From positions 128,001 to 192,000 of the forward strand of contig JBBRLQ010000009.1 of NCBI GenBank assembly GCA_038231275.1: a stretch of 64,000 bases of DNA, in the 5' to 3' direction. Below the pieces are notes generated by a model. The model made no database searches, had not been told where the DNA came from, and was given only the letters and a program-made list of their open reading frames with translations. The translations under genes were made by a program, and so were the position numbers. Positions 2,607-60,516 of the stretch are shown here, one piece after another (positions within the stretch are counted from its first letter, which is position 1; the number at the start of each line of letters is the position of its first letter). Source of the stretch: Polyangiales bacterium (lineage in GTDB: Bacteria; Myxococcota_A; Polyangia; Polyangiales; Polyangiaceae).

Positions 2607-3752
2607 GTGTCGACCCTCGAGTCCTCTGCCTCAACCCTCCGGCGTGCGATCGCGTCTGCGAGTCGCGGCCTCGTCGAGCGCGAGGCCCTCGTCGAGCTCA
2701 TCGCGCTCTCGGCTGTCGCCGGCGAGCACATGCTCGTGGTGGGGCCGCCGGGTACGGCGAAGAGCGAGGCCGTCCGTCGCATCGCCGGCGCGTTCGGGGG
2801 CAGGTACTTCGAGTACTTGCTGGGTCGGTTCACCGAGCCGAGCGAGATCTTCGGCCCGGTCGATCTGCGAAAGTTGCGCGAGGGGACCGTGGAGACGGAG
2901 ACGCGCGGGATGCTCCCCGAGGCGGAGATCGCCTTTCTCGACGAGGTGTTCCTCGGCTCGACGGCCATCCTGAACACGCTCCTCGGCGTCCTGAACGAAC
3001 GGACGTTCCGTCGCGGTCACACGCAGCTCGCGTGCCCGCTGCGTGTGTGCGTCGGCGCGTCGAACCAGCTCCCGGAGGACGAGATGCTGGCGGCGTTCGC
3101 CGATCGCTTCCTCGTGCGCGCGTTCGTGGAGCCGATCGCCGACGCGCGGATCGAGGATCTCCTGGAGGGCGCGTGGGCGATGGGGCAGAGCCCGAGAAAG
3201 GTGCATTCTGCACCGATGCTCGACGACCTCGACACGCTGGCGCGTGCGGCCGGCGCGGCGGACATGACCGGCGTACGCGACACGCTCGCGCACGCGCTTC
3301 GGAAGCTGCGCGCGGCGGGGATCGTGCTGTCGGATCGGCGCGCGACCAAGATTCAGCGGCTCGTCGCTGCGGCCGCCGCGCTGGCGGGGCGAGCGACACC
3401 AACCGGCGCCGATCTCTGGCCGATCGTGTACGCGGTACCGACGGAGCCGGCGCAGCGGACCGCCCGTGAGGCGCTGCGTGCGTTGCTCGAGGCGTCGGAG
3501 AACACGGCGCTCCAGTCGGCGGCGCTCGAGGCTTCGCAAGGCCCGCGCGCGCGGGCGACGCGCATCGTGACCGCCGGTCGCGCGCTCCTCGCCGAGGCGT
3601 CGCCCGGGGCCGGCGACGGCGCGGCAGAGGGCAGGCGGCTCAAGGTCGAGGGCATCCTCCGCGAGATCGACGCGGCGTTCGGCGAGGAGCAGCTCACCGA
3701 GGATCTGCGCACGCTGCGCGCGGATCTCGCCCGTACACTGCCCTCGTCGTGA
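2607..3752 (+). CDS. MoxR-family AAA+ ATPase (RavA-like) of a MoxR-vWA-beta-propeller system
   Basis: Walker A GPPGTAKS, YFEYLLGRFTEPSEIFGP, Walker B IAFLDE, GASN, DRF; first gene of an overlapping four-gene operon. Confidence 0.92.
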   Translation: MSTLESSASTLRRAIASASRGLVEREALVELIALSAVAGEHMLVVGPPGTAKSEAVRRIAGAFGGRYFEYLLGRFTEPSEIFGPVDLRKLREGTVETETRGMLPEAEIAFLDEVFLGSTAILNTLLGVLNERTFRRGHTQLACPLRVCVGASNQLPEDEMLAAFADRFLVRAFVEPIADARIEDLLEGAWAMGQSPRKVHSAPMLDDLDTLARAAGAADMTGVRDTLAHALRKLRAAGIVLSDRRATKIQRLVAAAAALAGRATPTGADLWPIVYAVPTEPAQRTAREALRALLEASENTALQSAALEASQGPRARATRIVTAGRALLAEASPGAGDGAAEGRRLKVEGILREIDAAFGEEQLTEDLRTLRADLARTLPSS

Positions 3753-4162
3753 AGCTCGCGTGGGGACTTCGTGAGCCACCGCTCGGCGCGACGGCGGCCG
3801 CAGCAGAAGGGGACGCGGCGCGCGCGATGGCCAAGCGCTTGATGGCGCGTGCGCCCGCTGACCTCGCGCGCCTGCGCGGCGTGGCGTCGACGTCGGTGCT
3901 CGTCGTCCTCGGCGAGGCGGACGATCTCCCGTGGGTGGAGGGGGCGAGCTACCTCGGTCGCGATCCGATCGCGCCGTCGCTTTGGTTGCCGACGACGCGC
4001 GCGCCGAGCGTCTCGGCCGCGTTGCTCGAGCGCGCGCTCGTTCATTTGCCGTCGCGGGGTCCATGCGCGGTGCTCCTCGCGCCGTCGCGCATCGTGCCGC
4101 TCTCGGCGGCGCGCCCCGTCGTGCACGAGCGCTTGGCGGCGTTCCTCGCGGAGGCGTCGTAG
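3749..4162 (+). CDS. bpX5-like small protein of a MoxR-vWA-beta-propeller ternary system
   Basis: W..REPPL and LPWVEGASYLGRDP.AP.LWLPT motifs; GTGA overlap with the MoxR stop; family assignment from memory. Confidence 0.7.
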   Translation: MKLAWGLREPPLGATAAAAEGDAARAMAKRLMARAPADLARLRGVASTSVLVVLGEADDLPWVEGASYLGRDPIAPSLWLPTTRAPSVSAALLERALVHLPSRGPCAVLLAPSRIVPLSAARPVVHERLAAFLAEAS

Positions 4163-5931
4163 TGCGCCTCCCTCGCGCGCTCGCGGCGTGGGAGGCGGAG
4201 CTCTCGCTGTTTCCGGAGGAGGTGGCGCTGGGCCTCGGTGGTGTCGTCGCGCGCCTCGCGCTCGCGATCGGACCGATGCGGGCGCGCGCGCAGCGGGGCC
4301 TCGGCACGCCCGACGGGTACGACGGCCTCTCCCGCCGCGGTGACTACGCGCGCCTCGTCATGACCGAGTGGCTGCTCGCCGACGAGATCCCCGAGGAGTT
4401 CGTGCGCCGCGTGGCGATGGGTGAGCACGCGTTCCTGGCGCGCGCGTTCGAGCAGCCGGCCTCGTCGCGGAGGAGCGTGGTGCTCTTCGACGCCGGCCCG
4501 GAGCAGCTCGGGGCGCCGCGCGTCGCGCAGCTGGCGGCGCTCGTCACGTTCGCGCAGCGTGCCGCCGATGCGCGAGCAGAGCTGGCGTGGGGGACGTTGC
4601 AAGCGCATCACGCCTCACTCGCCGAGGCGGTGACGCCGGCCGGCGTCGCGGCGCTCCTCGATGCACGGACGCGGAACCTCGCGCGGGCGGCCGATGTCGA
4701 GGTCGCGGTACGCCGGGCGGGAGCTCGTGGGGCGCACGACGAGCTGTGGATCGTGGGCAGCGCGGCGCTCGCCGAGGCGGCGGCGCGTGTCGGCGCGTCG
4801 TTCGTTCAGATCGACGACGTCCTCGAGCCAGAGGCCCACGAGCTGCGCGTGCGCGTCGTCCCTTCGCGCGGCGCCGAGCGGGGTGTCGTCCTCGAGCTCC
4901 CGTCCCCCCAAGTGACGACGCGGCTGCTCCGCGACCCGTTCCAGGTGGCGACGTCCACGGCGACCGGCGCCGATCATGCGCCGTCGCGCGCGCCCGGCAA
5001 CGTTGTCTTCTCCGCCGACGGGCGGAAGATCTTCGCGCGGACCGACGACGGGAGCCTCCTCTCCCTCGCGCTCCCCGGCTCGCCGCGCGCGGCCCCTGCC
5101 CCCGTCGCGCGTTATCGTCCTCCGTCCGGTCAGCGCGTCGTCGCCGCGGGATGGTCGCGCTCGCAGAAGCGCGTCCAGGTGATGACGCAAAAAGGTGACG
5201 GCGCGATGGTGCTGCACACGCTCTCGCGTCGCGGGAGCCAGTCCATCTCGGAGACGAGCTTCGCCGCCCTCGATCCGCCGGCTCCGGCGGGAGATCTCGC
5301 GGCGCTCTACCGTGAGCGGGAGGGCGCGATGTGCATGCTCGATGCGTGCGGGCGCCTCCTACGTCTGAACAAAGAGGCGGACGTCGACTGGATCAGCGTG
5401 GTCGCCGTCGTGTCGGGCTCCGGCCGCAGCGAGTGCGCCGCGATCGCGCTCGGTGAGTTCGTCGAGCTCGTGACGAAGCAGGGAGACGCGCCGGTCTCGA
5501 CGGTGCGCGTCCCGGTGCAGCTCGCGCGCGCGCCACGCGTCTTCTTCGGCGCGCGGCCGCCTCGGTGGCTCGCGGTGGTGGAGACCGGCGAGGACGAGTG
5601 GACCCTCGTGCGTCCGGAGCCAGGAGACGCGATCCGCGAGCGATGGGTCGTCCCCGCCGGGCGCGAGGTCTGCGGAGTGCTCGAGACCGAGTGGGCGCCG
5701 CCGAAGCCCGCGCTCGTGATGCTCGACGGCGAAGGTCAGGCGCTCCGGCTGTTTCGGCCGGAGGGCACCGAGCAGATCGTCACCTCGGAGCCGCGCATCC
5801 TGCACGCGACGGTGAGCCCGGGCGCCCGCGACATCGCGTACGGCACGGAGCGCGGCGAGCTCGTCGTCCACTCGCTCGCGGCGCGTGCCGTGATCGCGCG
5901 CATCGCGCCGAGCGCGCCCGAGGCGAAATGA
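4162..5931 (+). CDS. vWA-like (MoxR partner) plus C-terminal beta-propeller protein
   Basis: GTG 4162 overlaps the upstream TAG. PDGYDGLSRRGDYARLVMTEWLLADE.PEEFVRR...EHAFL precedes a degenerate MIDAS-like strand VVLFDAGPEQLG; propeller-like blades (VFSADGRKIF, TVSPGARDIAYGT). Confidence 0.7.
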   Translation: MRLPRALAAWEAELSLFPEEVALGLGGVVARLALAIGPMRARAQRGLGTPDGYDGLSRRGDYARLVMTEWLLADEIPEEFVRRVAMGEHAFLARAFEQPASSRRSVVLFDAGPEQLGAPRVAQLAALVTFAQRAADARAELAWGTLQAHHASLAEAVTPAGVAALLDARTRNLARAADVEVAVRRAGARGAHDELWIVGSAALAEAAARVGASFVQIDDVLEPEAHELRVRVVPSRGAERGVVLELPSPQVTTRLLRDPFQVATSTATGADHAPSRAPGNVVFSADGRKIFARTDDGSLLSLALPGSPRAAPAPVARYRPPSGQRVVAAGWSRSQKRVQVMTQKGDGAMVLHTLSRRGSQSISETSFAALDPPAPAGDLAALYREREGAMCMLDACGRLLRLNKEADVDWISVVAVVSGSGRSECAAIALGEFVELVTKQGDAPVSTVRVPVQLARAPRVFFGARPPRWLAVVETGEDEWTLVRPEPGDAIRERWVVPAGREVCGVLETEWAPPKPALVMLDGEGQALRLFRPEGTEQIVTSEPRILHATVSPGARDIAYGTERGELVVHSLAARAVIARIAPSAPEAK

Positions 5932-8900
5932 AGCTCCTCCGCGTCGCCCACGCGGGCCGCGTCCTCTGCCGCGGCTTCTTTTTCGGGCCGCCACTAGGCG
6001 AGGACGAGGCGCGCGCGCGCATCCTCGCGCGGTTTCGTCCGGGCGCCACGGTTCGCCGGACCGAGGGAGGGCTCGTGCTCCTCCTCGCAGAGCCTACGTG
6101 GGTTCGTGTGGACGCGTCGCCCGGCGCTCCGCTCGTCGCGCAGGCGCACGTCCTGTCGTCGGCGCCGCTGACGAACGCAGAGCTCGTCGCCCTCGCGGCG
6201 CCGCCCGAGGCGCTCGTGCTTGCGCGCGCCGGTGCCGCGGTGGTGCTCGCGCCGCGCGCCGGCGACGAAGAGGACCCGGCGCGGTGGCTCGACACCTCCG
6301 AGGTCATCGTGCTCGGCGTGACATCGCTCGGCGCGCCGCCGCCCGCGCCCCGCGTCGCGCCCGCCCCGCCGCCGCTCGACGTCCGCGCCGCGTTGAAAGC
6401 GCCGGCCGCGTCGGCAGAGCTCGCCGCGGTGCGCGCGGCGCTCGAACAGATGCGCGCCGGCGTGGAGTCGTCGGCGGGTCGCTCCCTGGCGCGCGCCGAA
6501 ACGTCCAGCGGGGGAATGGACGCCTTCGCGCGCGCCGCTCGTACGGCGCTGGCAGGCGTCGCGCGCCTCTTCGCGTCCGTTCTCGGTCTCTTCGGGCGCG
6601 CGGCGTCGGCGTCGGAGTCCGCGTCCCGTCGAACCTCCGAGGCCGCGAGCTCGCGGGCTCTCGCGGCGCGTCCGGCGCCGCCGAGCGGACCAAGCTTCCT
6701 CGAGCGTCTCCGCGCGCGCGTCCTCGACGTCGCGGCGCGGCTCCTCGTTCTTTCGCGAATCGCCCGCTTTTTCGAGCGCGCCCACGCGCAGTACCTCTCG
6801 AAAATGATCGACATGTTCGAACGCGGCGATCTCGAGGACGCGCTGCGCCACGCGATCCCGCTCGGTCAAGGAGACGGTTCGAGCGGTCCACCCGCGCTCC
6901 TCCCCGGAGGACCGCGCGCGGATCTCTCGATCTCGCCATGGCGCGCTCCCGCCCGAGGCGCGATCGGCCTCGGCGGCGCCCTGTTCGAGGATCTTCGCAC
7001 CATGTACCGGCGCGCGTTCGAGCGGCTCGTGGCCATGGGCGCGATCGAGCGCGCGGCCTTCGTCCTCGCGGAGCTGCTCGGCGCGAACGAAGAGGCCGTG
7101 TCGTTCCTCGAACGCCACGGGAAATACGAGCTCGCTGCGCAGATCGCCGAGGCGCGGGACCTGCCGCCGGGGCTCGTCGTTCGCCAGTGGCTCCTCGCGG
7201 GCGACACCCCGCGGGCGATCGCGATCGCCCGCGCGAAGGGGGCGTTCGCCGACGCCGTCGCGCGCCTCGAGCGCGCGGGGCCGCCGTACGCGAGCCTCGC
7301 CGTGCCGCTCCGCCTCCGGTGGGCCGACGTCCTCGCCGAAAGCGGGGCGTACGCCGCCGCCGTCGACGTCGTGTGGCCGGTCGAGAGCGCCCGTCCGCTC
7401 GCGCGCGCGTGGATCGAGCGCGCGCTCCTCGTCGGCGGCGCGACGGCAGGGACGATGCTCGCGCGGAAGGCGTCGCTGCCTGGCACGTTCGCGGAGGTGC
7501 GCGCGCAGGTCCTCACGCTTTTTGGTGACGCCGAGCCGGAGATCGACGCCACGCGCGTGGCCTTCGCGTCTGCGCTCGCCGCAGGACCCGCGACTGCGGA
7601 GACGCGCGTCCTCGCGAGGCCGGCTGCGCGCGCGCTCCTCGCAGGTCGCGCCGCCGCCGCCGCGCTCGGCCGCCGAAAGAGCGCCGCCCTCGCCGAGCGC
7701 CTCGCCGTCTTCTCCAACGATCCGGCGCTGCGCGCCGACATGCGCCCGCTCGTCGTCACGCCGCGCGTCCCCAACATCCGAATCTCCGTTGCAGGCTTCT
7801 CCATGATCGGCGAACGGAACATCAACGAGGACGCGATCGACTTCGGTCACCTGATGGAGGGTGGCCGTCGCGCCCATGGCACCAACCTCACGGTTCATGG
7901 CTTCTTCCTCCATGTTCTCGACGGGAGCGGGGGCGGCGAACCCCCTCGTCACCCCGCGACGATCGCTGCGGACGCGGTCCATGACGTCCTCACGCGCGAC
8001 GCCGGCGCAGGTCGGACCCGCGATGCGCTCGCGCGGGACCTGCGCGCCGCCGTTCGTGAGGCCAACCGGCGCATCTTCGAGGCGTCGACGCGCGATGTCC
8101 GGATGCGCGGCATGGGCAGCACGAGCACGTGCGCGGCGCTCGTCGACGGCGCGCTCGTCGTGTCGCAGGTCGGCGACTCGCGCGCGTACCTCCTGCGCGG
8201 AATGCGCTTCGAGCAGCTGACGCGCGACGACTCGCTCCTCGAGGCCTACAAGGACCAGCCCGGCTCGTTCACGGAGGTTGAGCTCGCCGACCTCCCGCAG
8301 AACATCATCACCAAGGCGCTCGGCATGGCGAGCGAGCTAGAGCCGCGCATCTCCGTCGTCCCGCTCCAGCGCGGGGACGTGGTGCTCTTGACGACCGACG
8401 GCGTCCACGCGCTCCTGCCGTCCGAGGCGCTTCCGACGCTCGCCCGCGGCGCCCGCGACGCACGCGGCCTCATCGAGGCCATTCGCGCCCGCATGGCTGT
8501 CGCGCAGGCCGCGGACAACTACAGCGCGGTGGTCGCGCGCTTCGACGGGACCGATCTGCCGGTGGAGCTTTCACCAGGCCCCTCGGCGTCCCCTTACGAG
8601 CCGGCGCCATCGTCGCTCGCCAACGTCGGCGAGGTGTCGCTCACCAGCCGCGTCGATCCGCTCGTGCACGCGCGCGAGGAGGGGGACGTCGGCGCGCTCG
8701 CCATTCACGACGCAGCGCTTCTTCCGGACGGCCGGCTCCTCGTCGCGCTCGGCGAGCTCGGCGTGCGGCTCCTCTCGCCGGCCGGAAAGACGCTCGCCCA
8801 TTTCGGCGAGCCCGCGCACCACCTCGTCGTGAGCACCTTCGGCGATCGCGCGATCGCGCTGGCCTCTCGCGGCGACGCCTGGCGCGTCGCGAAGATCGAT

Positions 8901-9413
8901 CTCGTCGGCCGCCGCGTACGCGCATGGCACGACGCGCGCTTCGATCGGTGGGCCCCGTCGTTCGACGGCGCGCGCTTCTTCTGCTCCCTCGGCGCGCGCG
9001 TCTTCGCGGTCGACGCCATCGCGGACGACTGGAGCGCGACATGGACCGTGACCGTCGACGAAGGAAAGCCGAGCGCGTTGTCGGTCGACGCGAATGAGCT
9101 CTGCGTCGTCGTCACGCGCGCGAAGGACGCGCACGTCCTGTGGCGCTACGATCTCGCGACGATGACGCTTCGCGGTCGCACCCCGAGCATGGTGCCGCCG
9201 CGGCTCGGCTGGTCGTGGGAATCGTCCGACGACATGGTCTCCCTGCTCGACGCGGACGGCCGTGCCCGACTCGCACTCCGGCTTCGTGGCGCCCGCTCTC
9301 CATGTGCGCGCGTGGACGGCGCCGACTTCGTGGTCTTCGACGACCGCGGCAGGCTGATCGTCCTCTCACGCGCGACCGGCGAGGTCCTCCGCGAGCACCG
9401 CGTCGCCCCGTGA
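5928..9413 (+). CDS. bpX6-like multidomain protein: N-terminal bpX6-like domain, helical repeats, internal PP2C phosphatase (~7782-8543), C-terminal beta-propeller
   Basis: ATGA overlap at 5928; LGEDEARARIL...PGAPL...LSSAPL N-terminus; PP2C motifs RNINED, LDGSGG, MGST, VGDSRAY, NIITKALG, LLTTDGV, DNYSAVV. Confidence 0.8.
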   Translation: MKLLRVAHAGRVLCRGFFFGPPLGEDEARARILARFRPGATVRRTEGGLVLLLAEPTWVRVDASPGAPLVAQAHVLSSAPLTNAELVALAAPPEALVLARAGAAVVLAPRAGDEEDPARWLDTSEVIVLGVTSLGAPPPAPRVAPAPPPLDVRAALKAPAASAELAAVRAALEQMRAGVESSAGRSLARAETSSGGMDAFARAARTALAGVARLFASVLGLFGRAASASESASRRTSEAASSRALAARPAPPSGPSFLERLRARVLDVAARLLVLSRIARFFERAHAQYLSKMIDMFERGDLEDALRHAIPLGQGDGSSGPPALLPGGPRADLSISPWRAPARGAIGLGGALFEDLRTMYRRAFERLVAMGAIERAAFVLAELLGANEEAVSFLERHGKYELAAQIAEARDLPPGLVVRQWLLAGDTPRAIAIARAKGAFADAVARLERAGPPYASLAVPLRLRWADVLAESGAYAAAVDVVWPVESARPLARAWIERALLVGGATAGTMLARKASLPGTFAEVRAQVLTLFGDAEPEIDATRVAFASALAAGPATAETRVLARPAARALLAGRAAAAALGRRKSAALAERLAVFSNDPALRADMRPLVVTPRVPNIRISVAGFSMIGERNINEDAIDFGHLMEGGRRAHGTNLTVHGFFLHVLDGSGGGEPPRHPATIAADAVHDVLTRDAGAGRTRDALARDLRAAVREANRRIFEASTRDVRMRGMGSTSTCAALVDGALVVSQVGDSRAYLLRGMRFEQLTRDDSLLEAYKDQPGSFTEVELADLPQNIITKALGMASELEPRISVVPLQRGDVVLLTTDGVHALLPSEALPTLARGARDARGLIEAIRARMAVAQAADNYSAVVARFDGTDLPVELSPGPSASPYEPAPSSLANVGEVSLTSRVDPLVHAREEGDVGALAIHDAALLPDGRLLVALGELGVRLLSPAGKTLAHFGEPAHHLVVSTFGDRAIALASRGDAWRVAKIDLVGRRVRAWHDARFDRWAPSFDGARFFCSLGARVFAVDAIADDWSATWTVTVDEGKPSALSVDANELCVVVTRAKDAHVLWRYDLATMTLRGRTPSMVPPRLGWSWESSDDMVSLLDADGRARLALRLRGARSPCARVDGADFVVFDDRGRLIVLSRATGEVLREHRVAP

Positions 9414-9542: not shown

Positions 9543-11021
9543 ATGTCCGAGTCGCAGCAGCGGTACCGCGTCGTCGAGAAGCTCGAGTCGGGCGGCATGG
9601 CCGAGGTTTTCCGCGCGGAGAGCGAGGGGCTGCAGGGCTTCAAGAAGCAGGTCGCGATCAAGCGCGTCCTGCCGCACCTGTCCGAGAAGAAGAAGTTCAT
9701 CTCGATGTTCCTCGACGAGGCGCGCCTCTCCGCGCAGCTCTCGCACTCGAACTGCGTGCAGGTCTTCGACATCGGCGTCGGCGACAACGCGTACTTCATC
9801 GTCATGGAGTTCGTCGACGGGGCGAACCTCAAGGCCATCGCCGAGGCGATCAAGAAGAGCGGGCGCGACTTCCCGGTTCCTGCGGCGGCGCTCATCGCGC
9901 TCGAGATCACGAAGGGCCTCTCCTACGCGCACGAGATGCGCGACCCCAACGGGATGGATCTCCACATCGTGCACCGCGACATGTCGCCGCCGAACGTGCT
10001 GGTGACCAAGTACGGCGAGATCAAAATCGTGGACTTCGGTCTCGCGAAGGCGAACTCGCAGCTCGAGAAGAGCGAGCCCGGCATCATCAAGGGGAAGTTC
10101 TCGTACCTGTCGCCCGAGGCGGCGATGGGGCAAGAGGTCGACGCGCGGACCGACATCTTCGCGGTCGGCATCATCTTGTGGGAGCTGCTCGCGGGGCAGC
10201 GGCTGTTCTTGGGCGAGACCGATTTCCAGACGGTGAAGAAGGTCCAGCAGGCCGTCGTCCCGTCGATCTCGAACATCAACAAGCGCGTGCCGCCGGAGCT
10301 GGAGCGCATCATCAACAAGACGCTCGCGCGCGAGCCCGCCGCCCGTTACCAGACGGCGCGTGATCTCGGGATGGAGCTGTCGAAGTTCCTCTTCTCGAAC
10401 GGCCAGCCCGTGAGCACATTCGACATCGCGTCACTCGTCGTCGGCGCGATGAAGGACAAGGCCAAGCATCGCGCGCCGCAAGGATCCATCATCGACAAGC
10501 TCATCGAGGAGGCGCTCCTCGAGTTCACGTCGCTCACCGACGACGCGCGCGAGGCGGCGCAGAAGCTCTCCGGGTCGAAGAAGCCGCCGCCCCTCGCCGC
10601 CGGCTCCGCGCCGCTGCGCGCCGATCAGTTCGTGGATCCGACGAACTGGGCGAAGGAGATCTCGCTCGGTGACATCACCGGCGGTGCCGACGACTCGATT
10701 CGTGCCTCGCTCCCGCCCGACGTCTTCCAGGCAGGGAATCTCTCCGCGCTCGAGGACGAGCCGCACTCCTCGCCGATGCCGTCGCCGCGCGGTGGAACGC
10801 CGCAGCCGTCTCCCGCGATGCAGGGGTCGCCCGGCTCGAACCCGCACCACATGAGGTCGTCGTACCCGCCGCCGATGATCCCGATGCCCCGGCACGGCAT
10901 GCAGCAGGCGCCGCCGCAAAAGAAGGGCGGCCTCGCCGGCGCGATCGTGGGCGTCGCCGTGGTCCTGTTCGCCGCCGCCGCCGCTGCCGCCGCGTGGTTC
11001 ACGCACTTGATTCCGCACTGA
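9543..11021 (+). CDS. Ser/Thr protein kinase with C-terminal transmembrane anchor
   Basis: GGMAEVF, VAIK, HRDMSPPN, DFG, YLSPE; Pro-rich linker; hydrophobic C-terminus. Confidence 0.95.
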   Translation: MSESQQRYRVVEKLESGGMAEVFRAESEGLQGFKKQVAIKRVLPHLSEKKKFISMFLDEARLSAQLSHSNCVQVFDIGVGDNAYFIVMEFVDGANLKAIAEAIKKSGRDFPVPAAALIALEITKGLSYAHEMRDPNGMDLHIVHRDMSPPNVLVTKYGEIKIVDFGLAKANSQLEKSEPGIIKGKFSYLSPEAAMGQEVDARTDIFAVGIILWELLAGQRLFLGETDFQTVKKVQQAVVPSISNINKRVPPELERIINKTLAREPAARYQTARDLGMELSKFLFSNGQPVSTFDIASLVVGAMKDKAKHRAPQGSIIDKLIEEALLEFTSLTDDAREAAQKLSGSKKPPPLAAGSAPLRADQFVDPTNWAKEISLGDITGGADDSIRASLPPDVFQAGNLSALEDEPHSSPMPSPRGGTPQPSPAMQGSPGSNPHHMRSSYPPPMIPMPRHGMQQAPPQKKGGLAGAIVGVAVVLFAAAAAAAAWFTHLIPH

Positions 11022-11034
11022 AGTGCGGAATCAA
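11007..11034. repeat. Perfect 13-bp inverted repeat overlapping the kinase stop codon
   Basis: TTGATTCCGCACT-GA-AGTGCGGAATCAA. Confidence 0.85.
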
Positions 11035-11040
11035 ATGACG

Positions 11041-11129
11041 CCTTTGTTTGTGTGGGCTTGCAGCCCCTCCACGCCGGACGGCGTGGAGACCTCCCCGCGT
11101 CGCCCTTCGGGCGAAGTCGCGGGGCGCGA
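11041..11129 (+). repeat. Structured dispersed element, copy 1 (candidate ncRNA or REP-like repeat)
   Basis: CCTTTGTTTG followed by three hairpins; aligns with the reverse complement of 30126-30217 with compensatory changes. Confidence 0.7.
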
Positions 11130-11185
11130 CGGCGGACCCTGACGACTTGCCGGGGGGGAGAATTTTGGGGTATGCGAGGGGGGCC

Positions 11186-11950
11186 GTGGTGGGTTCTCGC
11201 AGTATTCGACTTTTTTTTGGGGGGGCGCTCGCTGGGGGGGTCCTCGTGGCGACGGTGCCGGTGGCGGAGGGGCGGGGAGGGGCGTGTCCGAGCGGGATGG
11301 CGCTGATCGCTCCGCCTGAGGATGGGGCGCTGACGGAGCGGTATTGCATCGATCGGTGGGAGGCGTCGCTCGTCGAAGTGACCACCCACGGGAGCGCGCC
11401 GTTCTCGCCGTACGAGATGGTGAAGGGGCGGACTGTGAAGGCTGTCTCGCGCTCGGGCGTCGTTCCGCAGGCGTACCTCTCACGCAACGAAGCCGCCGCC
11501 GCGTGCAAGGCGTCGAAGAAGCGTCTGTGCACCGAAGAGGAGTGGACGACGGCGTGTCAGGGCAAGCGCCCGACCACGTACCCGTACGGCGACACCGCCC
11601 GCCCCGGCTCGTGCAACGACAGCGGTACCGCGCCGCTCCCCGCGCTCTATCCGGAGAACGACGAGGCCGCGCACTCGTTCGAGCCGATGAACGATTCACG
11701 CCTCAACCAGCAGCCGAACACGCTCAGCCGCACGGGCGCGCATCGTCGCTGCACGAACAGCTACGGCGTCTTCGACATGGTCGGCAACCTGCACGAGTGG
11801 GTGGACGATCCGAACGGCACCTTCCGCGGCGGCTACTACCTCGACACCCACATCAACGGTGATGGGTGCCGTTACCGTACGGTCGCGCACGACGCCGCGT
11901 ACCACGACTATTCGACCGGCTTTCGCTGCTGCGCCGATCTCGCGCGTTAG
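11186..11950 (+). CDS. Secreted FGE-sulfatase (SUMF1-like) domain protein
   Basis: CPSGM, YCIDRWEA, KRLCTEEEW..AC, YPYG, GVFDMVGNLHEW, GFRCC; start uncertain because the 5' sequence is G-rich. Confidence 0.85.
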   Translation: MVGSRSIRLFFGGALAGGVLVATVPVAEGRGGACPSGMALIAPPEDGALTERYCIDRWEASLVEVTTHGSAPFSPYEMVKGRTVKAVSRSGVVPQAYLSRNEAAAACKASKKRLCTEEEWTTACQGKRPTTYPYGDTARPGSCNDSGTAPLPALYPENDEAAHSFEPMNDSRLNQQPNTLSRTGAHRRCTNSYGVFDMVGNLHEWVDDPNGTFRGGYYLDTHINGDGCRYRTVAHDAAYHDYSTGFRCCADLAR

Positions 11951-12023
11951 GCGCGAGATCTCGGCGTACCCTCAAGGGTTCGCGTGGCGCGCCGTTCGTC
12001 GCCGCCAGGGGGAGAATCCATCA

Positions 12024-25957: not shown

Positions 25958-27184
25958 ATGAGCCCCGCAAAAAAAGCGGCGAAGGAAAAGAAGAAGAGCG
26001 CGAATCCCAAGCCCAAGCCCGGGCCGAAACCCAAGCCCACGGCGAAGGCCTCGAAGAAGACCTCGCCGCTCGCGTTGTCCAAGGGGGACGCGCCGCCCAA
26101 GGACGTCACCCGCGATCTCTTCCTCGTCTGGCGCGCGCCGCGCATCGGCATGGCCAATCCGCAGCGGCTCACCAATGCGGCGTGGACATGGCTCGCGCGC
26201 CACAAGGAGATGAACGCGTACGTGGCGAACGCGCACTTCGCCGGGCCGAGCTCGATGGCGGTGGGACCGTGCTTCTGCGCGAACCGCTTCGGTCAGAGCA
26301 TCACCGACCTGCCCGACGGCCGCGTCTTTGCCATTGCGGGCGAGCACGAGGACTACTACGACCCCGACTTCTTCATCTACAACGACGTCATCGTCACGGA
26401 CGCCGCGGGGCGCGTGGAGATCTTCGGCTATCCGCGCGAGGTCTTTCCCCCGACCGATTTCCACACCGCCACGCTCGTCGGAAATCGCATCATCGTGATC
26501 GGGTGCCTGGGGTACCCGTCGCAGCGCGATCCTGGCACAACGCCGGTCTTTGCCGTCGACACGACCACGCTCGCGATCACGCGGCTCACGACGACCGGAA
26601 TGCTGCCCGGGCGAATCTTCAACCACGAGGCCGAGCTCGCGGCGGACGCGCGCACGATCGTGATCCGCAAGGGCGAGCGCGCGATGCTCGTGCACGGGGC
26701 CGAAAAGATCTGCGACAACCACGACGACTGGTCCCTCGATCTCGAGACCCTGACGTGGAGACGGCTGACCGAGCGCCGGTGGCCGGTGTGGGAGCTCGCG
26801 CGCGCGGACGGCGAGCGCAACCACCTCTGGGAGATCGAGGGAATGTCGTGGCACGCGGACGGCAAGACCCCGTTCGATCGCGCGCAATTCGCTGCGCACC
26901 GAAAGGCGCTCGGCCGCGTCCCTGACCTCGATGTCTTCGCGACGCGCTTTTCACCGCCCATCGCGCACACCAAGGTCGAGGACGCGGAGGCGCGGCACGA
27001 CACCACGACCATCGAGGCCGCGGGCATGCTCGTTCGCTATCGGCAGGAGTCGCGATGCGTGCGCATCACCGTGTGCGGCCGCCTCCCGGAGGAGACGGTC
27101 GCAACACTGGTGGACGACGCGCGGCGGAAGCTCGAGGTGCTCGAGCAGTTCGCCTACGAAGCGCGCCTCGTGCCGGCATTCTGA
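25958..27184 (+). CDS. Hypothetical protein with Kelch-like beta repeats and a Lys-rich N-terminus
   Basis: RFGQS...LPDGR...IAGEHEDYYDPDF.IYNDV, DFHTATLVGNRI..IG. Confidence 0.65.
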   Translation: MSPAKKAAKEKKKSANPKPKPGPKPKPTAKASKKTSPLALSKGDAPPKDVTRDLFLVWRAPRIGMANPQRLTNAAWTWLARHKEMNAYVANAHFAGPSSMAVGPCFCANRFGQSITDLPDGRVFAIAGEHEDYYDPDFFIYNDVIVTDAAGRVEIFGYPREVFPPTDFHTATLVGNRIIVIGCLGYPSQRDPGTTPVFAVDTTTLAITRLTTTGMLPGRIFNHEAELAADARTIVIRKGERAMLVHGAEKICDNHDDWSLDLETLTWRRLTERRWPVWELARADGERNHLWEIEGMSWHADGKTPFDRAQFAAHRKALGRVPDLDVFATRFSPPIAHTKVEDAEARHDTTTIEAAGMLVRYRQESRCVRITVCGRLPEETVATLVDDARRKLEVLEQFAYEARLVPAF

Positions 27185-29970
27185 CGACGACGACGGCGGA
27201 GCGCGCCGAGCATCGCCAAGCCGCCGAAGCCCACGAACGCCCACGACGGGGTCCGCTTCGCGTCGACCGTGCGGCAGCCGCAGCCGCCGCTGTCGCCCGT
27301 GCCGCCGCTTCCGCCGTCGGCCGCCGCGTCCGAGCCAGGGTTCCCGGAGTCGCGTCCGCTGCCCGAATCGGTGCCGCCGCTGCTTCCGGAGTCGGCGGTG
27401 GAACCGGAGTCGTCACCGGAGCCGGAGTCGACGCCGCCGCTGCTCCCGGAGTCGTTGCCGGAGCCGGAGTCGTTGCCGGACCCCGAGTCTTTCCCGGCGT
27501 CGGCGCCCGAGTCGGAGCCCGCGTCGGAACCGGCGTCGGAACCGGCGTCGGGACCGGCGTCGGTGCCTCCGCCGCCGCAGACGTTCGCGGTGCCGCCGCC
27601 GCCGCAGGTCTGCGGTGCGGCGCACGCGGCGCCGCACGAGACGGTCCCTCCGCAGCCGTTGGGGATGGTCCCGCAGTTGTCGGGGGCGGGGCAGGTGGTG
27701 ATGGGCGTACAGCCGCAGACGTTCGCGGTGCCTCCGCCGCCGCAGGTCTGCGGTGCGGTGCACGCGGCGCCGCACGAGACCGTGCCGCCGCAGCCGTCAG
27801 GGATGGTCCCGCAGTTGTCGGGGGCAGGGCAGGTCGTGATCGGAACGCAGCCCGTGACCGACACGGTCGCCGTCGCGGCGTGGACTGCTGACGGGGCCTT
27901 GCCGATGACCGTGAAGGTCACCGGGCTCGCGGTCACCGGGGCGCCAGCCGCGGCCGTCAGGGTCAACGTCGAGGTCGCCCCGGCCGTCACGCTCGCAGGC
28001 AGGAACGCGCCGGCCACACCGGTCGGCAAATCCTGCACGTTGAGCGCGATGCTCTCGGCGACACCTTTGGTCGACGCCGTGGTCACCGTGAACGTGGTCG
28101 TCGCGCCCGGGGCGACGGTGCGGCTCGCGGGCGACAGCGAGATCGAGAAGTCGTTCGCGCCGCAGTTCGGGAACTTCGTGCTCGCGATGAACGTCCTCCA
28201 GTTCGAGGCGCTGTTCACCTGGTAGAGCTCCTGCGTGTACCAGAAGGTGCAGTCGTCGACCGGATCGACGGTCATGTTGCTGTAGTCGCCCCAGCGGCCC
28301 TGGGTCTGGTTGCCCGCGCCGGTGTCGATGACCGCTTCGGACTGGCCCATCGTTCCCGCGGGATCCGCCGCGGTGCGACCGGTCCACGCGATCGACGGGT
28401 TCGTCGTCGCGCTCGAGATCGAGTAGCCGAGCGCCATGTCTTGCGCCATGTCCTGCGCGAGGCTGCCCATCCAGCGCCAGTTCGCGTCGCTCGGCGCGTA
28501 GGTGCCTTGCTGGAAGAGGGTCGGAGTGCCGGCAGGCAACCGGATCTCGTACCAGCGGATGCCGCCAGTCGCGCCCGCCACGACCGAGTGATTGACCATC
28601 AACGCCTGATGCGTCCCGAAGTTGCGGTAGGTGAACCGGAACATCAGGCGGTCATCGAGCCCCGCGATCTTGGCGTTGCTCTTCTCGGGGACGCAGTCGG
28701 CGCCTTGGGTCGAGTAACAGGTGGGGGTGAAGTTCGCGACTTGGAGCGCGGTCGGGCCGGTGAGCTTGCTGTTCGACGGCGTCGTCCAATCCAGCTTGAG
28801 CGACCAGAGGTCCACCTGGTTGTAGGTTGGGCCGCACTGGCTGTAGTCGAACTGCATGAACCAGCCGGGCGCGCCGACCGGCGGGTGAATCTTGCCATCG
28901 AGGCTGATCGGCAGCGCGCCGCCAATCTGGAAGGGTTCGACCGGAGGCGGTCCGCCGTCCGTCGGGCACGCGGTCACCGCGGGGAACGGCTGGACGAAGC
29001 ACTGCTGCGCGGCCGGCTGGCCCGACAGCATCTTCACGCGATCGTAGGCGCAGAAGTCCGCGCCCTTGAAGTCGTAGCTCCCGGCGTTCGAGTCGAAGAT
29101 GTTAAACGTCGCGTAGTAGCCGTCCGGCCAGATGCCGAACTTGCCGTAGTCGTTGATCGAGTAGTTGTATTTGAAGTCGTAGAGCCAGTAGGCGCCGGTC
29201 GGGTCGGCGGTCTTCGAGACGGCGATGCACTGGTAGGACGGGCCGCCCGCCGTGTTGGCCCCGGGCAGCGAGAACTGGGTGATGAACCAGCGATCGGCGA
29301 GCTGGTCATAGACGACCACTGGATCGCCGTCGTTGTTCGTTCCGCAGCCGTTGCCGGCGTTGGTGCCGACGTAGCCGGTCCAGAGGTTGACGAGCGGTTT
29401 GCCCGCCGCGGCGACGGTGCCGTTCTTGTTCCAGATCTCGAGGTTCGTGTTGACGGTCTGGACGAAGTGGTTCGGGCCGACGGCGCCGTTGGTGTCCGGG
29501 GGATAGCCGCCGAACGCGGTGCCGCTTTGCCCCGAGAAGTTCAGGAGGGTCGCCGGCATGCTCGAGATCGGGACCTCGGTCTGGGCGATCGGGTCGACGG
29601 TCAGGCCGTGGAGCGGGAGGTACGTGCGCGGCGCCTTGAGCGGCCGGTGCTCGCGCCCCTCGTCCTCCTCCTCCCTGACCGGCACACTCGGTGCGGTCGC
29701 GAACGGCACCGAGCTCTCGGCGTGGGAGACTTGGATCGAAGGGTTCCCCTGCACCGCAGATCGCGACGTGTCGGCCGGTCCATAGCTCGGCGACCGCTCG
29801 CTCACCGCGCCGCGCGTCGGCGCCGTGGTCGCTACGCGATCTGCCTCCTGCGTCTTCCCGACGTCCGGCCCGTTCCCCTGCGAGCATGCAGCGGCCACCG
29901 ACACGACACCCAGCGCCACGAGCGCGAGCGCCCGACCTTTGGTCCCCGCCACGAACGAAAATCTACTCAC
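27154..29970 (-). CDS. Large exported protein with Ig-like domain, Cys-rich repeats and MYXO-CTERM sorting signal
   Basis: Signal/lipobox VAAAC; PPDTNGAVGPNH...RWGDYS core; Thr-rich Ig-like segment; two 46-aa Cys repeats; DAG/DSG linker; GGCGC-TM-RRRRR tail. Confidence 0.85.
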   Translation of the reverse strand: MSRFSFVAGTKGRALALVALGVVSVAAACSQGNGPDVGKTQEADRVATTAPTRGAVSERSPSYGPADTSRSAVQGNPSIQVSHAESSVPFATAPSVPVREEEDEGREHRPLKAPRTYLPLHGLTVDPIAQTEVPISSMPATLLNFSGQSGTAFGGYPPDTNGAVGPNHFVQTVNTNLEIWNKNGTVAAAGKPLVNLWTGYVGTNAGNGCGTNNDGDPVVVYDQLADRWFITQFSLPGANTAGGPSYQCIAVSKTADPTGAYWLYDFKYNYSINDYGKFGIWPDGYYATFNIFDSNAGSYDFKGADFCAYDRVKMLSGQPAAQQCFVQPFPAVTACPTDGGPPPVEPFQIGGALPISLDGKIHPPVGAPGWFMQFDYSQCGPTYNQVDLWSLKLDWTTPSNSKLTGPTALQVANFTPTCYSTQGADCVPEKSNAKIAGLDDRLMFRFTYRNFGTHQALMVNHSVVAGATGGIRWYEIRLPAGTPTLFQQGTYAPSDANWRWMGSLAQDMAQDMALGYSISSATTNPSIAWTGRTAADPAGTMGQSEAVIDTGAGNQTQGRWGDYSNMTVDPVDDCTFWYTQELYQVNSASNWRTFIASTKFPNCGANDFSISLSPASRTVAPGATTTFTVTTASTKGVAESIALNVQDLPTGVAGAFLPASVTAGATSTLTLTAAAGAPVTASPVTFTVIGKAPSAVHAATATVSVTGCVPITTCPAPDNCGTIPDGCGGTVSCGAACTAPQTCGGGGTANVCGCTPITTCPAPDNCGTIPNGCGGTVSCGAACAAPQTCGGGGTANVCGGGGTDAGPDAGSDAGSDAGSDSGADAGKDSGSGNDSGSGNDSGSSGGVDSGSGDDSGSTADSGSSGGTDSGSGRDSGNPGSDAAADGGSGGTGDSGGCGCRTVDAKRTPSWAFVGFGGLAMLGALRRRRRQNAGTRRAS
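27575..27850. repeat. Intragenic tandem duplication, 138-nt period, 2 copies
   Basis: CCGCAGACGTTCGCGGTG... at 27575 and 27713. Confidence 0.9.
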
Positions 29971-30125
29971 GATGAACCTCTTGGGAAGACGCGGCCAACT
30001 CCCGCGCGCGCGTACTCTGCAGCAACCCCACCTCAACCGCAACGCCCCCGCCCATCTCCCCCCCCAAAATTCCCCTATTTCCCTGCCCATGCTTGCTCGC
30101 CCCCCGTCGCCCCCCGTCGCCCCCC

Positions 30126-30217
30126 TCGCGCCCTGCGCGAGTGCGCCAAAGGCGCCGCAGGGGAGGCTCGCCGCCCTCCGGCGGCGAGGGGGCACGCAGT
30201 GCCCCACCAAACAAAGG
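30126..30217 (-). repeat. Structured dispersed element, copy 2
   Basis: Reverse complement aligns to 11041-11129. Confidence 0.7.
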
Positions 30218-30225
30218 AAACCCCA

Positions 30226-30274
30226 CCCGCTGCATGGGTTCGTTCGCAAAGGCGAACGAACCCCATGCAGCGGG
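30226..30274. repeat. 22-bp stem-loop with one bulged base
   Basis: CCCGCTGCATGGGTTCGTTCGC-AAAG-GCGAACGAA(C)CCCATGCAGCGGG. Confidence 0.85.
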
Positions 30275-30403
30275 ATGGAGTGCGATGGAGTGCGAGCCAG
30301 TGCGAGCAAAATGAGCCCACAGATCGACAAACGAAATTAACTTTGGTTGAAGTGGTGGCTCGTCCGCCGCGCACGATCGCACGGCGGACTTGGATCGGAC
30401 TCG

Positions 30404-32782
30404 ATGCTGCAAGGGATCTCCGCTTCTCACGCGACGTCGCGTGGACCTTTCGTTCCTCACATTCGCCTCTTCGCCGAGCCGGTGCTCGTCGCGAGCAGGA
30501 GTGGCCTCTCGAACGACTACGACGAGATGGTCGCGCCGCTGATCGAGCTCTCGTTCGACTACGGCGGCACCCGCGTCCGCGCGAGCGACGAGCGTCAGCG
30601 CATCTTCAAGCCGGAGGGCGGCTCGCTCGTCCACGTCGATCGCGACGCGGCGGGGGAGGCTGGCGCCCGGCGGCTCCTCGAGCGCCTCGGCGCGCTGGAG
30701 CTCGCGTGCTTCGACGATCTCGCGGCGCCGCCCGGCTGCGACGCCGAGTACGTGGTGCGCATCGACGCCGGTTCGCACGCGTTCTGCGCGTTCACGACGC
30801 ACGCGCTCCCTCAGCTGCGCGCGGCAGGATTCCAGATCGACATCGATCCCGAGTTCCCGTTCCGCGTCGCGCCCGCCGACGCGCCGTGGTTCGCGAAGGT
30901 CTCCCCCGACGACGAGCTCCCCGGCTGGTTCAGCCTGGAGCTCGGCATCGAGGTCGACGGCGTGCAGGTCGATCTTCTCCCCCTGATCGTCGAGCTCCTC
31001 GACGATGCCGACGAGGCCGACGGCCTGCGTGCGCTCTCCCGTCGCTTCCGCTCGTCGTACGCGCTCAAAGTCGACGCCACGCACCACGTCAGCGTCACAC
31101 CCGACCGCCTGCGGGCGCTCCTCCACGTTGTCATCGAGCTCTATCAAGGCATCAAGCAGAAGAAGCACGCGAAGGCCGCGAAGATCTCGTTCCCCGCCGT
31201 GCGTGCGTCGGCGCTCGCCAAGCTCGACGCCGCGTTCAAGAGCCAGGGCACGCCGCTCGCGTGGCAAGACCCCGCGCGCCTCACCGATCGCGCGCGCGCG
31301 CTCACGTCGCGTCCTGCCGCCGCGCCGCCGCCCGCCCTGCTTCAGGCCACGCTGCGCCCCTACCAGGCCGAGGGGGTCGCGTTTCTCCAGCACCTCGTAG
31401 ACGAGGAGGTGGGCGGCGTGCTCGCCGACGACATGGGGCTCGGCAAGACGCTCCAGACGATCGCGCACCTCGTCACCGAGAAGGCGGCGGGTCGCCTCAC
31501 GTCACCGGCGCTGATCGTCGCGCCCACGAGCCTCGTCGGCAATTGGGCGCGCGAGCTCGAACGCTTCGCGCCGCACCTCACGGTCACGATCCTCCACGGC
31601 ACCGCCCGCCACGGAAGGCGCGCGCACATCGCAGAGAGCGACGTCGTCATCACCACCTACCCGCTGCTCGTACGCGACGAGGATCTCTTCGCCGGCAACA
31701 CGTTCCACATCCTCGTCATGGACGAGGCGCAGGCGATCAAGAACACGCGCAGCCAGGTGCACCGCGCGATCAAGGGCGTGCCGGCGAAGCACCGCCTGGC
31801 GCTGAGCGGCACTCCTGTCGAAAATAACCTGAGCGAGCTCTGGGCGCTCTTCGACGTCTTGAACCCTGGCCTCCTCGGCGACGAGCTCGCGTTCGTGCGC
31901 TGGTACCGAAAGCCGATCGAGCAGCTCCGCGACGAAGAGCGCCTCACCGCGCTGCGCGATCTCGTCGCGCCCTACATCTTGCGCCGCGTGAAGCGCGACG
32001 TCGCGAAGGAGCTGCCGCCCAAGACCGAGCTGTTCCACCGCGTCGAGCTTTCTGGAAAGCAGCGCGATCTCTACGAGCACATCCGCGTCGCCGCGCACGC
32101 CGACGTGCGCAAGGTGATCCGCGGCAAGGGACTCGCCGCGTCCACGATCGCGATCCTCGACGCGCTGATGAAGCTGCGTCAGGTCTGTTGCGATCCGCGC
32201 CTCGTTGCGATGGACGCCGCGAAGAGCGTGAAGGAGTCGGCGAAGTACGACGCGCTCTTCGAGCTCTTGGACACGCAGCTCGCCCAAGGCCACCGCGTGC
32301 TCCTCTTCTCGCAGTTCACGAGCATGCTCGCGCTCGTCGCCGAGGGCCTGCGCGAGCGGCAGGTGGAGCACCTTGTCCTGACCGGAGCCACCAAGGATCG
32401 TCAGGCCCGCGTCGATGCGTTCGAGCGCGGCGAGGCCGACGTCTTCCTCATCAGCCTGAAGGCAGGCGGCACGGGGCTGAACCTCACGAGCGCGGACACC
32501 GTCATCCACTACGATCCGTGGTGGAACCCCGCGGCGCAGGCGCAGGCGACCGATCGCGCGCACCGCATCGGGCAGAGTCGCCCCGTCTTCGTCTACAACC
32601 TGTTCGTCGCGGGCAGCGTCGAGGAGCGCGTCGTGCGGCTCCAACAAAAGAAGCGCTGGCTCTCGGCGACGCTCCTCGGCGACGAGGGCGCGTCGAGCAG
32701 CATCAGCGAGCAGGACGTCGACGCGCTCTTCGCGCCGCTCGACGAAGAGGGGCCGCCTCCGAGCTCACGCCGCGCGCGCTGA
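30404..32782 (+). CDS. SNF2/SWI2-family helicase
   Basis: LRPYQ, LADDMGLGKT, DEAQ, LSGTPVEN, LFSQF, SLKAGGTGLNL, DPWWNP, QATDRAHRIGQ. Confidence 0.95.
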   Translation: MLQGISASHATSRGPFVPHIRLFAEPVLVASRSGLSNDYDEMVAPLIELSFDYGGTRVRASDERQRIFKPEGGSLVHVDRDAAGEAGARRLLERLGALELACFDDLAAPPGCDAEYVVRIDAGSHAFCAFTTHALPQLRAAGFQIDIDPEFPFRVAPADAPWFAKVSPDDELPGWFSLELGIEVDGVQVDLLPLIVELLDDADEADGLRALSRRFRSSYALKVDATHHVSVTPDRLRALLHVVIELYQGIKQKKHAKAAKISFPAVRASALAKLDAAFKSQGTPLAWQDPARLTDRARALTSRPAAAPPPALLQATLRPYQAEGVAFLQHLVDEEVGGVLADDMGLGKTLQTIAHLVTEKAAGRLTSPALIVAPTSLVGNWARELERFAPHLTVTILHGTARHGRRAHIAESDVVITTYPLLVRDEDLFAGNTFHILVMDEAQAIKNTRSQVHRAIKGVPAKHRLALSGTPVENNLSELWALFDVLNPGLLGDELAFVRWYRKPIEQLRDEERLTALRDLVAPYILRRVKRDVAKELPPKTELFHRVELSGKQRDLYEHIRVAAHADVRKVIRGKGLAASTIAILDALMKLRQVCCDPRLVAMDAAKSVKESAKYDALFELLDTQLAQGHRVLLFSQFTSMLALVAEGLRERQVEHLVLTGATKDRQARVDAFERGEADVFLISLKAGGTGLNLTSADTVIHYDPWWNPAAQAQATDRAHRIGQSRPVFVYNLFVAGSVEERVVRLQQKKRWLSATLLGDEGASSSISEQDVDALFAPLDEEGPPPSSRRAR

Positions 32783-33056: not shown

Positions 33057-33072
33057 TGCAACCCACGGGCCA
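33057..33072 (-). promoter_or_regulatory. sigma54 (-24/-12) promoter
   Basis: TGGCCCG-TGGG-TTGCA on the minus strand; palindrome GTGCGC-N5-GCGCAC upstream at 33104-33120. Confidence 0.7.
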
Positions 33073-35141: not shown

Positions 35142-35157
35142 TGGCACGCGCCTGGCT
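35142..35157 (+). promoter_or_regulatory. sigma54 (-24/-12) promoter upstream of comM-recA
   Basis: TGGCACG-CGCC-TGGCT with GG-N10-GC spacing; palindrome GGTGTCC-CC-GGACACC at 35063-35078. Confidence 0.6.
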
Positions 35158-40001: not shown

Positions 40002-40013
40002 GGCGCCATGCTG

Positions 40014-40029
40014 AGCAAGCACCGTGCCC
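40014..40029 (-). promoter_or_regulatory. sigma54 (-24/-12) promoter of the FlaE-repeat gene
   Basis: GGGCACG-GTGC-TTGCT on the minus strand. Confidence 0.7.

Positions 40030-58854: not shown

Positions 58855-60516
<1,662 letters not shown>

Follow-up and report, generated by a model that had tools for sequence, protein, structure and literature searches.

A repeated three-hairpin unit in two intergenic regions

Within the 64,000-nucleotide stretch of Polyangiales DNA analyzed here (the window), we found an intergenic repeat unit in two copies, at 11041–11129 on the plus strand (copy 1) and 30126–30217 on the minus strand (copy 2), each with a core of approximately 90 nt made of three back-to-back hairpins joined by short T-rich and C-rich linkers. 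Our preferred reading, to which we assign a probability of roughly 35%, is that the two loci may be copies of a lineage-restricted intergenic hairpin-cluster repeat that is transcribed as a leader or spacer with the downstream gene and acts structurally. The sequence, pairing, position and orientation of the unit are direct observations; what the unit might do in a transcript is discussed below in conditional terms. A preliminary description of this DNA had reported that both stretches read through a shared head, hairpins 1 and 2, CCTCCCC, a nested third stem and a shared tail, and upon inspection both were found to read exactly so.

By blastn, positions 11041–11135 aligned with 30217–30120 at 74.8% identity over 103 columns (E = 1.2e-8), copy 2 being the best non-self match of the copy 1 region against the window. 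In a self-comparison of the window (E up to 0.01), the pair ranked second among 16 dispersed pairs with an E-value of 3.7e-6 and was the better of the two dispersed similarities located outside an ORF. The top pair (38114–38294 and 39459–39642, 68% over 184 nt) sits inside an ORF and probably reflects a domain repeated within the FlgE_D2-containing product. Both cores begin with CCTTTGTTTG and finish with GGGCGCGA, and exact occurrences of the head 10-mer CCTTTGTTTG in the window are limited to the two copies. A MAFFT alignment of 11041–11129 (plus) with 30126–30217 (minus) left 62 of 92 columns invariant. The copies have diverged at approximately 25% of bases, with roughly equal divergence at paired and unpaired positions, and the similarity ends sharply, at 11041/30217 on one side and at about 11135/30120 on the other.

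By eye, there was no inverted repeat between the core ends in either copy, and no target duplication or shared direct repeat flanking either one. The MITE label that had been offered for the element was therefore dropped, as its ends are not inverted and it shows no target duplication. A genomic island bounded by the inverted copies was likewise rejected, because no compositional step marks the intervening DNA.

Stem pairing is retained while stem sequences change

Read on the plus strand, copy 1 passes from its T-rich head CCTTTGTTTG into hairpin 1 (11054–11066; 5 bp with loop TGC, GGGCT-TGC-AGCCC), hairpin 2 (11067–11088; 9 bp with loop GGAC, CTCCACGCC-GGAC-GGCGTGGAG), the linker CCTCCCC (11090–11096) and hairpin 3 (11093–11124), which has an outer stem of 7 bp (CCCCGCG/CGCGGGG), an inner stem of 6 bp (TCGCCC/GGGCGA), loop TTC and a 3′ bulge AGT, before closing with the tail CGCGA. 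Copy 2, read on the minus strand, has the same layout, with hairpin 1 at 30189–30205 (7 bp, loop TGC, GGGGCAC-TGC-GTGCCCC), hairpin 2 at 30167–30188 (9 bp, loop GGAG, CTCGCCGCC-GGAG-GGCGGCGAG) and hairpin 3 at 30131–30162 (outer stem of 7 bp, CCCTGCG/CGCAGGG; inner stem of 5 bp, GCGCC/GGCGC; loop TTT; 3′ bulge ACTCG). The CCTCCCC linker between hairpin 2 and the nested third stem is common to both copies, as are the hairpin 1 loop TGC and the GGA of the hairpin 2 loop.

All stem pairs are Watson-Crick (27 of 27 in copy 1 and 28 of 28 in copy 2), with no mismatches and no G-U pairs among the 55. Between the copies, five stem pairs are changed on both sides and none is broken: two in hairpin 2, one each in the outer and inner stems of hairpin 3, and at least one in hairpin 1. 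Whole pairs have also been gained or lost in hairpin 1 (5 versus 7 bp) and in the inner stem of hairpin 3 (6 versus 5 bp). Under a simple combinatorial model of our own, the chance of ten independent substitutions falling as five restored pairs is approximately 2e-8. Because every stem difference stays Watson-Crick, what is preserved is hairpin formation within a single strand, and maintenance of the hairpins across approximately 25% divergence is, as judged from the two sequences, well supported. Since all pairs are Watson-Crick and none is G-U, they are equally compatible with RNA or DNA and with either strand.

The earlier observation that stem sequence changes while pairing is kept thus extends to all three hairpins, and the double compensatory change noted in hairpin 2 is real, with two pairs changed on both sides and pairing kept. 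The accompanying proposal that the element is maintained at the level of folding stands insofar as the stems remain paired despite change, but gains nothing from formal covariation: a count on 16 pairs in the MAFFT register gave 100% pairing and 3 double changes, a result reached by 63 of 500 shuffles, as the test is powerless with only two sequences.

Predicted RNA folding energies were −51.6 kcal/mol for copy 1 (z = −3.3), a value matched by 0 of 200 shuffles, and −53.9 kcal/mol for copy 2 (z = −2.2), matched by 6 of 200. Folded as DNA, the cores gave the same three hairpins with z-scores of −4.9 (copy 1) and −4.2 (copy 2), and the opposite strands, folded as RNA, equaled or surpassed the given ones when set against shuffles (z = −5.2 and −3.2). 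Hairpins 1 and 2 were retained in longer folds (216- and 341-nt contexts), and in both copies CCUCCCC there paired with a G run in place of hairpin 3; by these predictions, the third hairpin is less secure than the first two. The fold consists of three serial hairpins with linkers of 0–4 nt and without a multi-helix junction, an arrangement that argues against a riboswitch-type ligand sensor, which would be expected to keep such a junction or a pocket, with invariant unpaired bases, in many species.

Flanking genes and the preferred reading

The window codes for Ser/Thr kinases, ECF sigma factors, a sigma-54 activator, two-component systems and a MYXO-CTERM protein. Copy 1 lies in the intergenic spacer between a gene whose product is a Ser/Thr protein kinase ending in a C-terminal membrane segment (9543–11021, plus) and one for a 254-aa FGE-sulfatase-domain protein (11186–11950, plus) whose N-terminus resembles a signal peptide by eye; its core begins 20 nt after the kinase stop codon. 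Copy 2 lies within a 430-nt divergent spacer between an SNF2-family helicase gene (30401–32782, plus; start picked by eye in an ORF open from 30347) and a gene for a 938-aa exported protein (27154–29970, minus) whose N-terminus looks lipoprotein-like by eye and in which a MYXO-CTERM sorting domain scores 24.7 bits (cut-off 20). We took GTG at 11186 as the start of the FGE-like gene because its homologues measure 252–259 aa, and for GTG at 29970 an 83%-identical homologue begins at the same place. Each copy points to the next start codon, and only this orientation places a gene downstream at both sites. The preliminary description was therefore accurate in calling both copies intergenic and co-oriented upstream of genes for exported proteins (starting at GTG 11186 and GTG 29970); of the export signals, the MYXO-CTERM domain is a scored match and the signal peptide of the FGE-domain protein a judgment by eye. 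The two downstream genes are unrelated to each other.

A coding reading of the unit was rejected, as internal indels shift the frame between the copies and homologues place the starts downstream; at both sites the frame that stays open into the downstream gene keeps one register with respect to the element, and the translations agree at the ends only. An in-frame translation of the copy 2 region, searched for mis-called N-terminal extensions against 1.84 billion protein representatives, returned two low-complexity multi-stretch matches only.

The longest-contig sizes recorded for six kinase homologues (10573, 25915, 4332, 3319, 216318 and 443821) recur for six FGE-like homologues, from which the two genes appear to be adjacent in relatives as well; with the pair seemingly conserved, a co-transcribed spacer is plausible. 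The nearest relatives of the flanking proteins show 83–92% identity and come mostly from metagenome sources, with source names of Polyangia or Polyangiaceae. Against a collection of 5.8 billion protein clusters, the best matches of three window proteins were at 83%, 92% and 91%, with none at 100%. Directly upstream of the kinase gene, the genes of a MoxR-vWA-beta-propeller ternary system occupy 2607–9413 (plus), among them one for a bpMoxR ATPase and one for a 1282-aa protein that combines bpX6 with PP2C phosphatase domains.

A crude promoter scan, limited to sigma-70-like and sigma-54-like sites, found no sigma-70-like promoter between core and gene or just upstream in either copy, and no sigma-54-like promoter between core and gene or near either copy; the lack of a promoter match between core and gene fits transcription entering from upstream. 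No canonical intrinsic terminator was found at copy 1, and copy 2 has one weak 5-bp site where 0.6 would be expected by chance; the unit was accordingly rejected as an intrinsic terminator, in which a U tract would come directly behind a GC-rich hairpin. Elsewhere in the window, sigma-54 promoter-like sites with one mismatch to the consensus occur at 33057–33072 (minus), 35142–35157 (plus) and 40014–40029 (minus). The last falls in the first codons of the longest reading of ORF 38247–40022 (minus), which has two FlgE_D2 domain stretches, and would thus lie ahead of a start further downstream. At 58855–60516 the window encodes a sigma-54 activator that contains an FHA domain.

From this arrangement we infer that the unit would be transcribed together with the following gene, copy 1 as the spacer between the kinase and FGE-like cistrons and copy 2 as the 5′ leader of the MYXO-CTERM gene. 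In such a transcript the unit might act as a block of structural punctuation, its stable hairpins shielding transcript ends from exonucleases and uncoupling the downstream cistron, while the G-run tract beside the ribosome-binding region, described below, could tune translation initiation; transcription itself is as much a part of this inference as any effect on stability or translation. Stable mRNA hairpins before or between cistrons are known from the ompA leader and from REP hairpins within operons, where, as would be the case here, structure rather than sequence matters. Those are single hairpins, in contrast to the repeated, ordered three-hairpin unit described here. In favor of our reading are the consistent orientation and the presence of a G-run tract on the gene's strand at both sites. 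Counting against it, the complete absence of G-U pairs, together with the fact that either strand folds equally well, is no less compatible with a DNA-level constraint, the loops and linkers have diverged like the stems so that nothing marks recognition sites, and the two downstream genes are unrelated, exported products being common in such genomes.

Search for relatives

No Rfam 15 family matched anywhere in the window at gathering scores, in agreement with the earlier statement that the element was not recognizable as a named family. At E-values up to 10, there were 6 and 9 matches around the two loci, all far below gathering (best 23.8 bits against 100) and mostly on the hairpins upstream of the cores; the copy 2 upstream hairpin drew only spurious microRNA-precursor matches.

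The covariance model that the preliminary description had called for did recover both copies, at 106.5 and 97.6 bits, but by construction, as it was trained on these two (from a MAFFT alignment that did not fully match up hairpin 1 or the inner part of hairpin 3), and with filters off it detected no third copy in the window, the next match scoring 18.2 bits. For the species genomes, we used an exact pattern of three shared single-stranded blocks with variable gaps, CTTTGTTTG-gap-CCTCCCC-gap-GGGCGCG. Among 185,579 species-representative genomes it gave 16 matches in unrelated phyla, all at chance level, and matched no Polyangia genome, nor the window's own two copies. Over the 16 loci the covariance model gave 47 matches at E up to 10, and because the best of these reached no more than 20.5 bits in loci selected for their matching blocks, we attribute them to chance.

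Plasmid and phage collections contained nothing similar save one marginal match (E = 6e-3), which falls within a gene on a plasmid from an alphaproteobacterium. There was no orthologue of the kinase on plasmid records either, the best match having 38.9% identity. A literature search over titles and abstract openings returned no description of a comparable myxobacterial repeat. Within this narrow search, in which one exact-block pattern was run over species-representative genomes, there were thus no further copies and no significant covariation, the formal outcome that the preliminary description had named as speaking against its proposal. The unit belongs to none of the described families with which we compared it and is best regarded as a candidate from two copies; with no further copy found, a "family" here means two members.

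A G-run tract follows each core

The resemblance between the two loci extends beyond the cores. Each is followed by a tract of 60–110 nt rich in G runs, on the same strand as the core and the downstream gene. In copy 1 (11130–11240, plus), the tract comprises G7 (11152–11158), AATTTT (11161–11166) and G6 (11178–11183), the last directly before the start codon, and a distal part (11211–11240) with T8 (11211–11218) and two G7 runs (11219–11225 and 11234–11240) that lie inside the signal-peptide codons. In copy 2 (30040–30125, minus), AATTTT (30066–30071) is accompanied by G8 (30058–30065), and approximately 3.8 units of a 10-nt tandem repeat, GGGGGGCGAC on the sense strand, occupy 30097–30133. 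An exact 11-mer, GAATTTTGGGG, begins 30 nt after the copy 1 core and 53 nt after the copy 2 core, the extra distance corresponding to approximately two units of the tandem repeat; a 12-mer containing it has no other site in the window at up to 2 mismatches. Of the window's G/C runs, 8 of 22 with at least 6 nt and 4 of 6 with at least 7 nt lie no more than approximately 110 nt downstream of the two cores, and every one of these reads as G on the strand of the downstream gene. At 70% G+C, such runs are less exceptional here than in low-GC pathogens (the window itself measures 70.4%).

We applied a strict G-quadruplex rule (four G runs of at least 3, loops of 1–7 nt; in a leader, these would be on the transcribed strand), by which 2 of the window's 10 motifs lie in the copy 2 tract, at 30058–30088 and 30100–30133. 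At both loci, the AATTTT/G-run box is followed within a few bases by the ATG of a short ORF (11172–11306, plus; 29963–30055, minus). The one at copy 2 has 30 codons, overlaps the main GTG start and stops 8 nt into the main gene, and the two peptides have no likeness beyond M-x-G-G.

Homopolymeric-G contingency tracts and 5′-UTR G-quadruplexes are known G-run systems at gene 5′ ends. The present tracts resemble them in having clusters of G6–8 near or inside the 5′ end of exported-protein genes, with strict motifs after copy 2, and differ from 5′-UTR G-quadruplexes in that copy 1 fails the strict pattern, as one loop would measure 8 nt. An unlikely alternative to a structural repeat is a dedicated cis-regulatory leader RNA, in which a protein or small molecule would be the ligand of the three-hairpin platform and the C-rich linkers (CCCCUC and CCUCCCC) would pair with the G runs, or a G-quadruplex would form, switching both genes together. 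The co-oriented upstream position of the unit at both sites, the identical TGC and retained GGA loops, the replacement of hairpin 3 by CCUCCCC:G-run pairing in the longer folds of both copies, the two strict motifs after copy 2 and the placement of G6 directly before the copy 1 start codon all agree with it. Against this, three serial hairpins with such short linkers leave no junction or pocket, loops and linkers are conserved no better than stems, copy 1 is without a strict motif, the true ribosome-binding site of copy 2 lies approximately 80 nt beyond the G runs, and the 185,579 species genomes supplied no relative with which covariation could be tested. A bolder version, in which an undescribed Polyangia class of leader RNA combines the three-hairpin platform with the G tract (as a toggle between linker pairing and a G-quadruplex, or through slippage) in order to switch or phase-vary exported and surface proteins, strikes us as distinctly improbable.

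Upstream hairpins and a possible origin as a DNA repeat

Each core begins shortly after another strong hairpin, its T-rich head lying 6–8 nt beyond it, and hairpin 3 is followed by GC-rich sequence with no U tail. The copy 1 upstream hairpin (11007–11034, plus) has 12 perfect bp (−19.1 kcal/mol), ends 6 nt before the core and carries the kinase stop codon TGA in its loop, its 5′ arm coding for the C-terminal residues LIPH. That of copy 2 (30226–30274, minus) pairs over approximately 22 bp, with a single G bulged out and CTTT as its loop; it stops 8 nt short of the core and, folded as 30221–30272, reaches −37.2 kcal/mol. These two have the longest stems among the 21 perfect hairpins of the window with stems of at least 8 bp, a set that also includes hairpin 2 of each copy, and their sequences are unrelated. 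All 24 kinase homologues inspected end in IPH plus 0–1 residue, 15 of them with LIPH, and since the 5′ arm is thus conserved coding sequence, the copy 1 upstream hairpin belongs locally to the gene end and not to a transposed unit.

The next gene (11186–11950) likewise has its stop codon in the loop of a hairpin, of 10 bp at 11936–11960 (plus); in both this hairpin and that at 11007–11034 the 5′ arm is formed by the last few codons and no T tract lies behind, and a hairpin with the stop codon in its loop may be the usual gene-end signal of this genome. Just upstream of the copy 2 hairpin, 30274–30307 read on the minus strand contains 10-nt tandem units with TCGCACT three times at 10-nt spacing, a spacing typical for direct-repeat response-regulator binding sites. 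CGCACT also occurs twice in the last kinase codons before copy 1, probably by coincidence of TH/PH codons.

The position of the cores bears on an improbable alternative, that the unit is a DNA-level repeat whose hairpins in single-stranded DNA are recognized by a transposase or recombinase, or the remains of a small mobile element that inserts just after strong hairpins, any effect on transcripts being incidental. Such an origin would account for 55 of 55 Watson-Crick pairs without G-U, for strands that fold equally well, for the sharp ends of the similarity (11041/30217 and about 11135/30120) and for the location of each core 6–8 nt past one of the two longest perfect hairpins of the 21, of which that of copy 1, on conserved coding sequence, would be present independently of the element. 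It is harder to reconcile with core ends that are not inverted repeats (CCTTTGTTTG versus GGGCGCGA) and lack a target duplication by eye, with a Pfam scan in which 0 of the window's 49 ORFs had a transposase domain, with the count of two copies in 64 kb and none in the species genomes by pattern scan, and with the second conserved block, AATTTT within G runs, which recurs at a similar distance and is unexplained by simple insertion.

Known palindromic repeats provide a parallel in kind. REP/BIME elements of enterobacteria and RIME-type mosaic elements of rhizobia are short intergenic GC-rich palindromes with conserved linkers, often located right after gene ends, where they can stabilize transcripts or act as barriers. 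RAYT-associated REP/BIME elements recur many times within a genome, frequently clustered with alternate members inverted, and a Y1 (RAYT) transposase gene lies nearby or between copies. As an intergenic mosaic of GC-rich palindromes with linkers, the unit is of the same kind as these repeats and a member of none of them. It differs from all three in having three different hairpins in fixed order plus a G-run tract, and from REP/BIME in a window free of any RAYT-type transposase gene; the 64 kb examined contain two copies, with none weaker. The REP/RAYT label suggested earlier could accordingly not be sustained, since the window contains no Y1 transposase gene, and a classic REP was ruled out by the three different hairpins in fixed order together with the result of 0 transposases among 49 ORFs.

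Quite improbable, in our assessment, is a functionless relic of an old local duplication whose palindromes were kept perfect by template switching during replication rather than by selection. Divergence that is about even over paired and unpaired positions is what such a relic would show, and template switching has been proposed as a process by which perfect hairpins, along with seemingly compensatory changes, arise and persist (PMC8794818). Five pair changes plus whole-pair indels spread over three hairpins, with none disrupted, would however need repeated correcting events, and the flanks share the oriented G-run/AATTTT architecture beyond the core.

Small RNA genes and operators

A myxobacterial RNA of comparable shape is the Pxr small RNA of Myxococcus, described as a 108-nt triple stem-loop (PMC5568312) with its own sigma-54 promoter and a fixed place after nla19, and reported only from the suborder Cystobacterineae (PMC5684412, PMC5568312). 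The present unit is similar in having three stem-loops and a comparable total size. It differs in belonging to a Polyangia-like genome and in lacking a sigma-54-like site near either copy. A 21-nt segment of Pxr stem-loop 1, taken from a primer given in PMC5568312, was absent from the window at up to 3 mismatches. The Pxr neighborhood (nla19 and an NADH dehydrogenase gene) was absent around the element, whose neighbors are the kinase and FGE-like genes and the SNF2 and MYXO-CTERM genes, and Rfam searches of the window and of the two loci gave no Pxr match, a result that counts only if Rfam includes a Pxr model. Identity with Pxr was therefore ruled out by promoter, neighbors and the stem-loop-1 segment. 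A stand-alone small RNA gene of approximately 90–150 nt built on similar lines seems very unlikely as well: the three stem-loops and a total size comparable to the 108 nt given for Pxr (PMC5568312) speak for it, but it would have to accommodate the absence of a promoter-like site ahead of the unit, a hairpin 3 without a U tail, a copy 1 that begins 20 nt after a stop codon, and the absence of both the 21-nt Pxr segment and the Pxr gene neighborhood.

Palindromic operators for dimeric DNA-binding regulators, with half-sites changing together and so mimicking compensation, are the least credible explanation: the stems are perfect palindromes with 3–4 nt centers upstream of genes in a window rich in regulators (two-component systems, ECF sigma factors, a sigma-54 activator), but three different adjacent palindromes would require three regulators, the stem lengths differ between the copies (5 versus 7 bp and 6 versus 5 bp) and alter half-site spacing, and the copy 1 site would fall between two genes that look co-transcribed.

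Implications

The unit has no Rfam match, and the non-coding elements of Polyangia-type myxobacteria are almost unexplored. Its significance depends on how it is distributed. As matters stand, it is a well-documented candidate rather than a discovery. If the genome holds many copies, it would represent a new lineage-specific repeat family, useful for annotation and strain typing though biologically ordinary. If instead relatives carry the unit at the same loci, it would constitute a new structured-RNA motif with sequences enough for a covariation test, and would link hairpin platforms, together with G-run tracts, to regulation of exported proteins.
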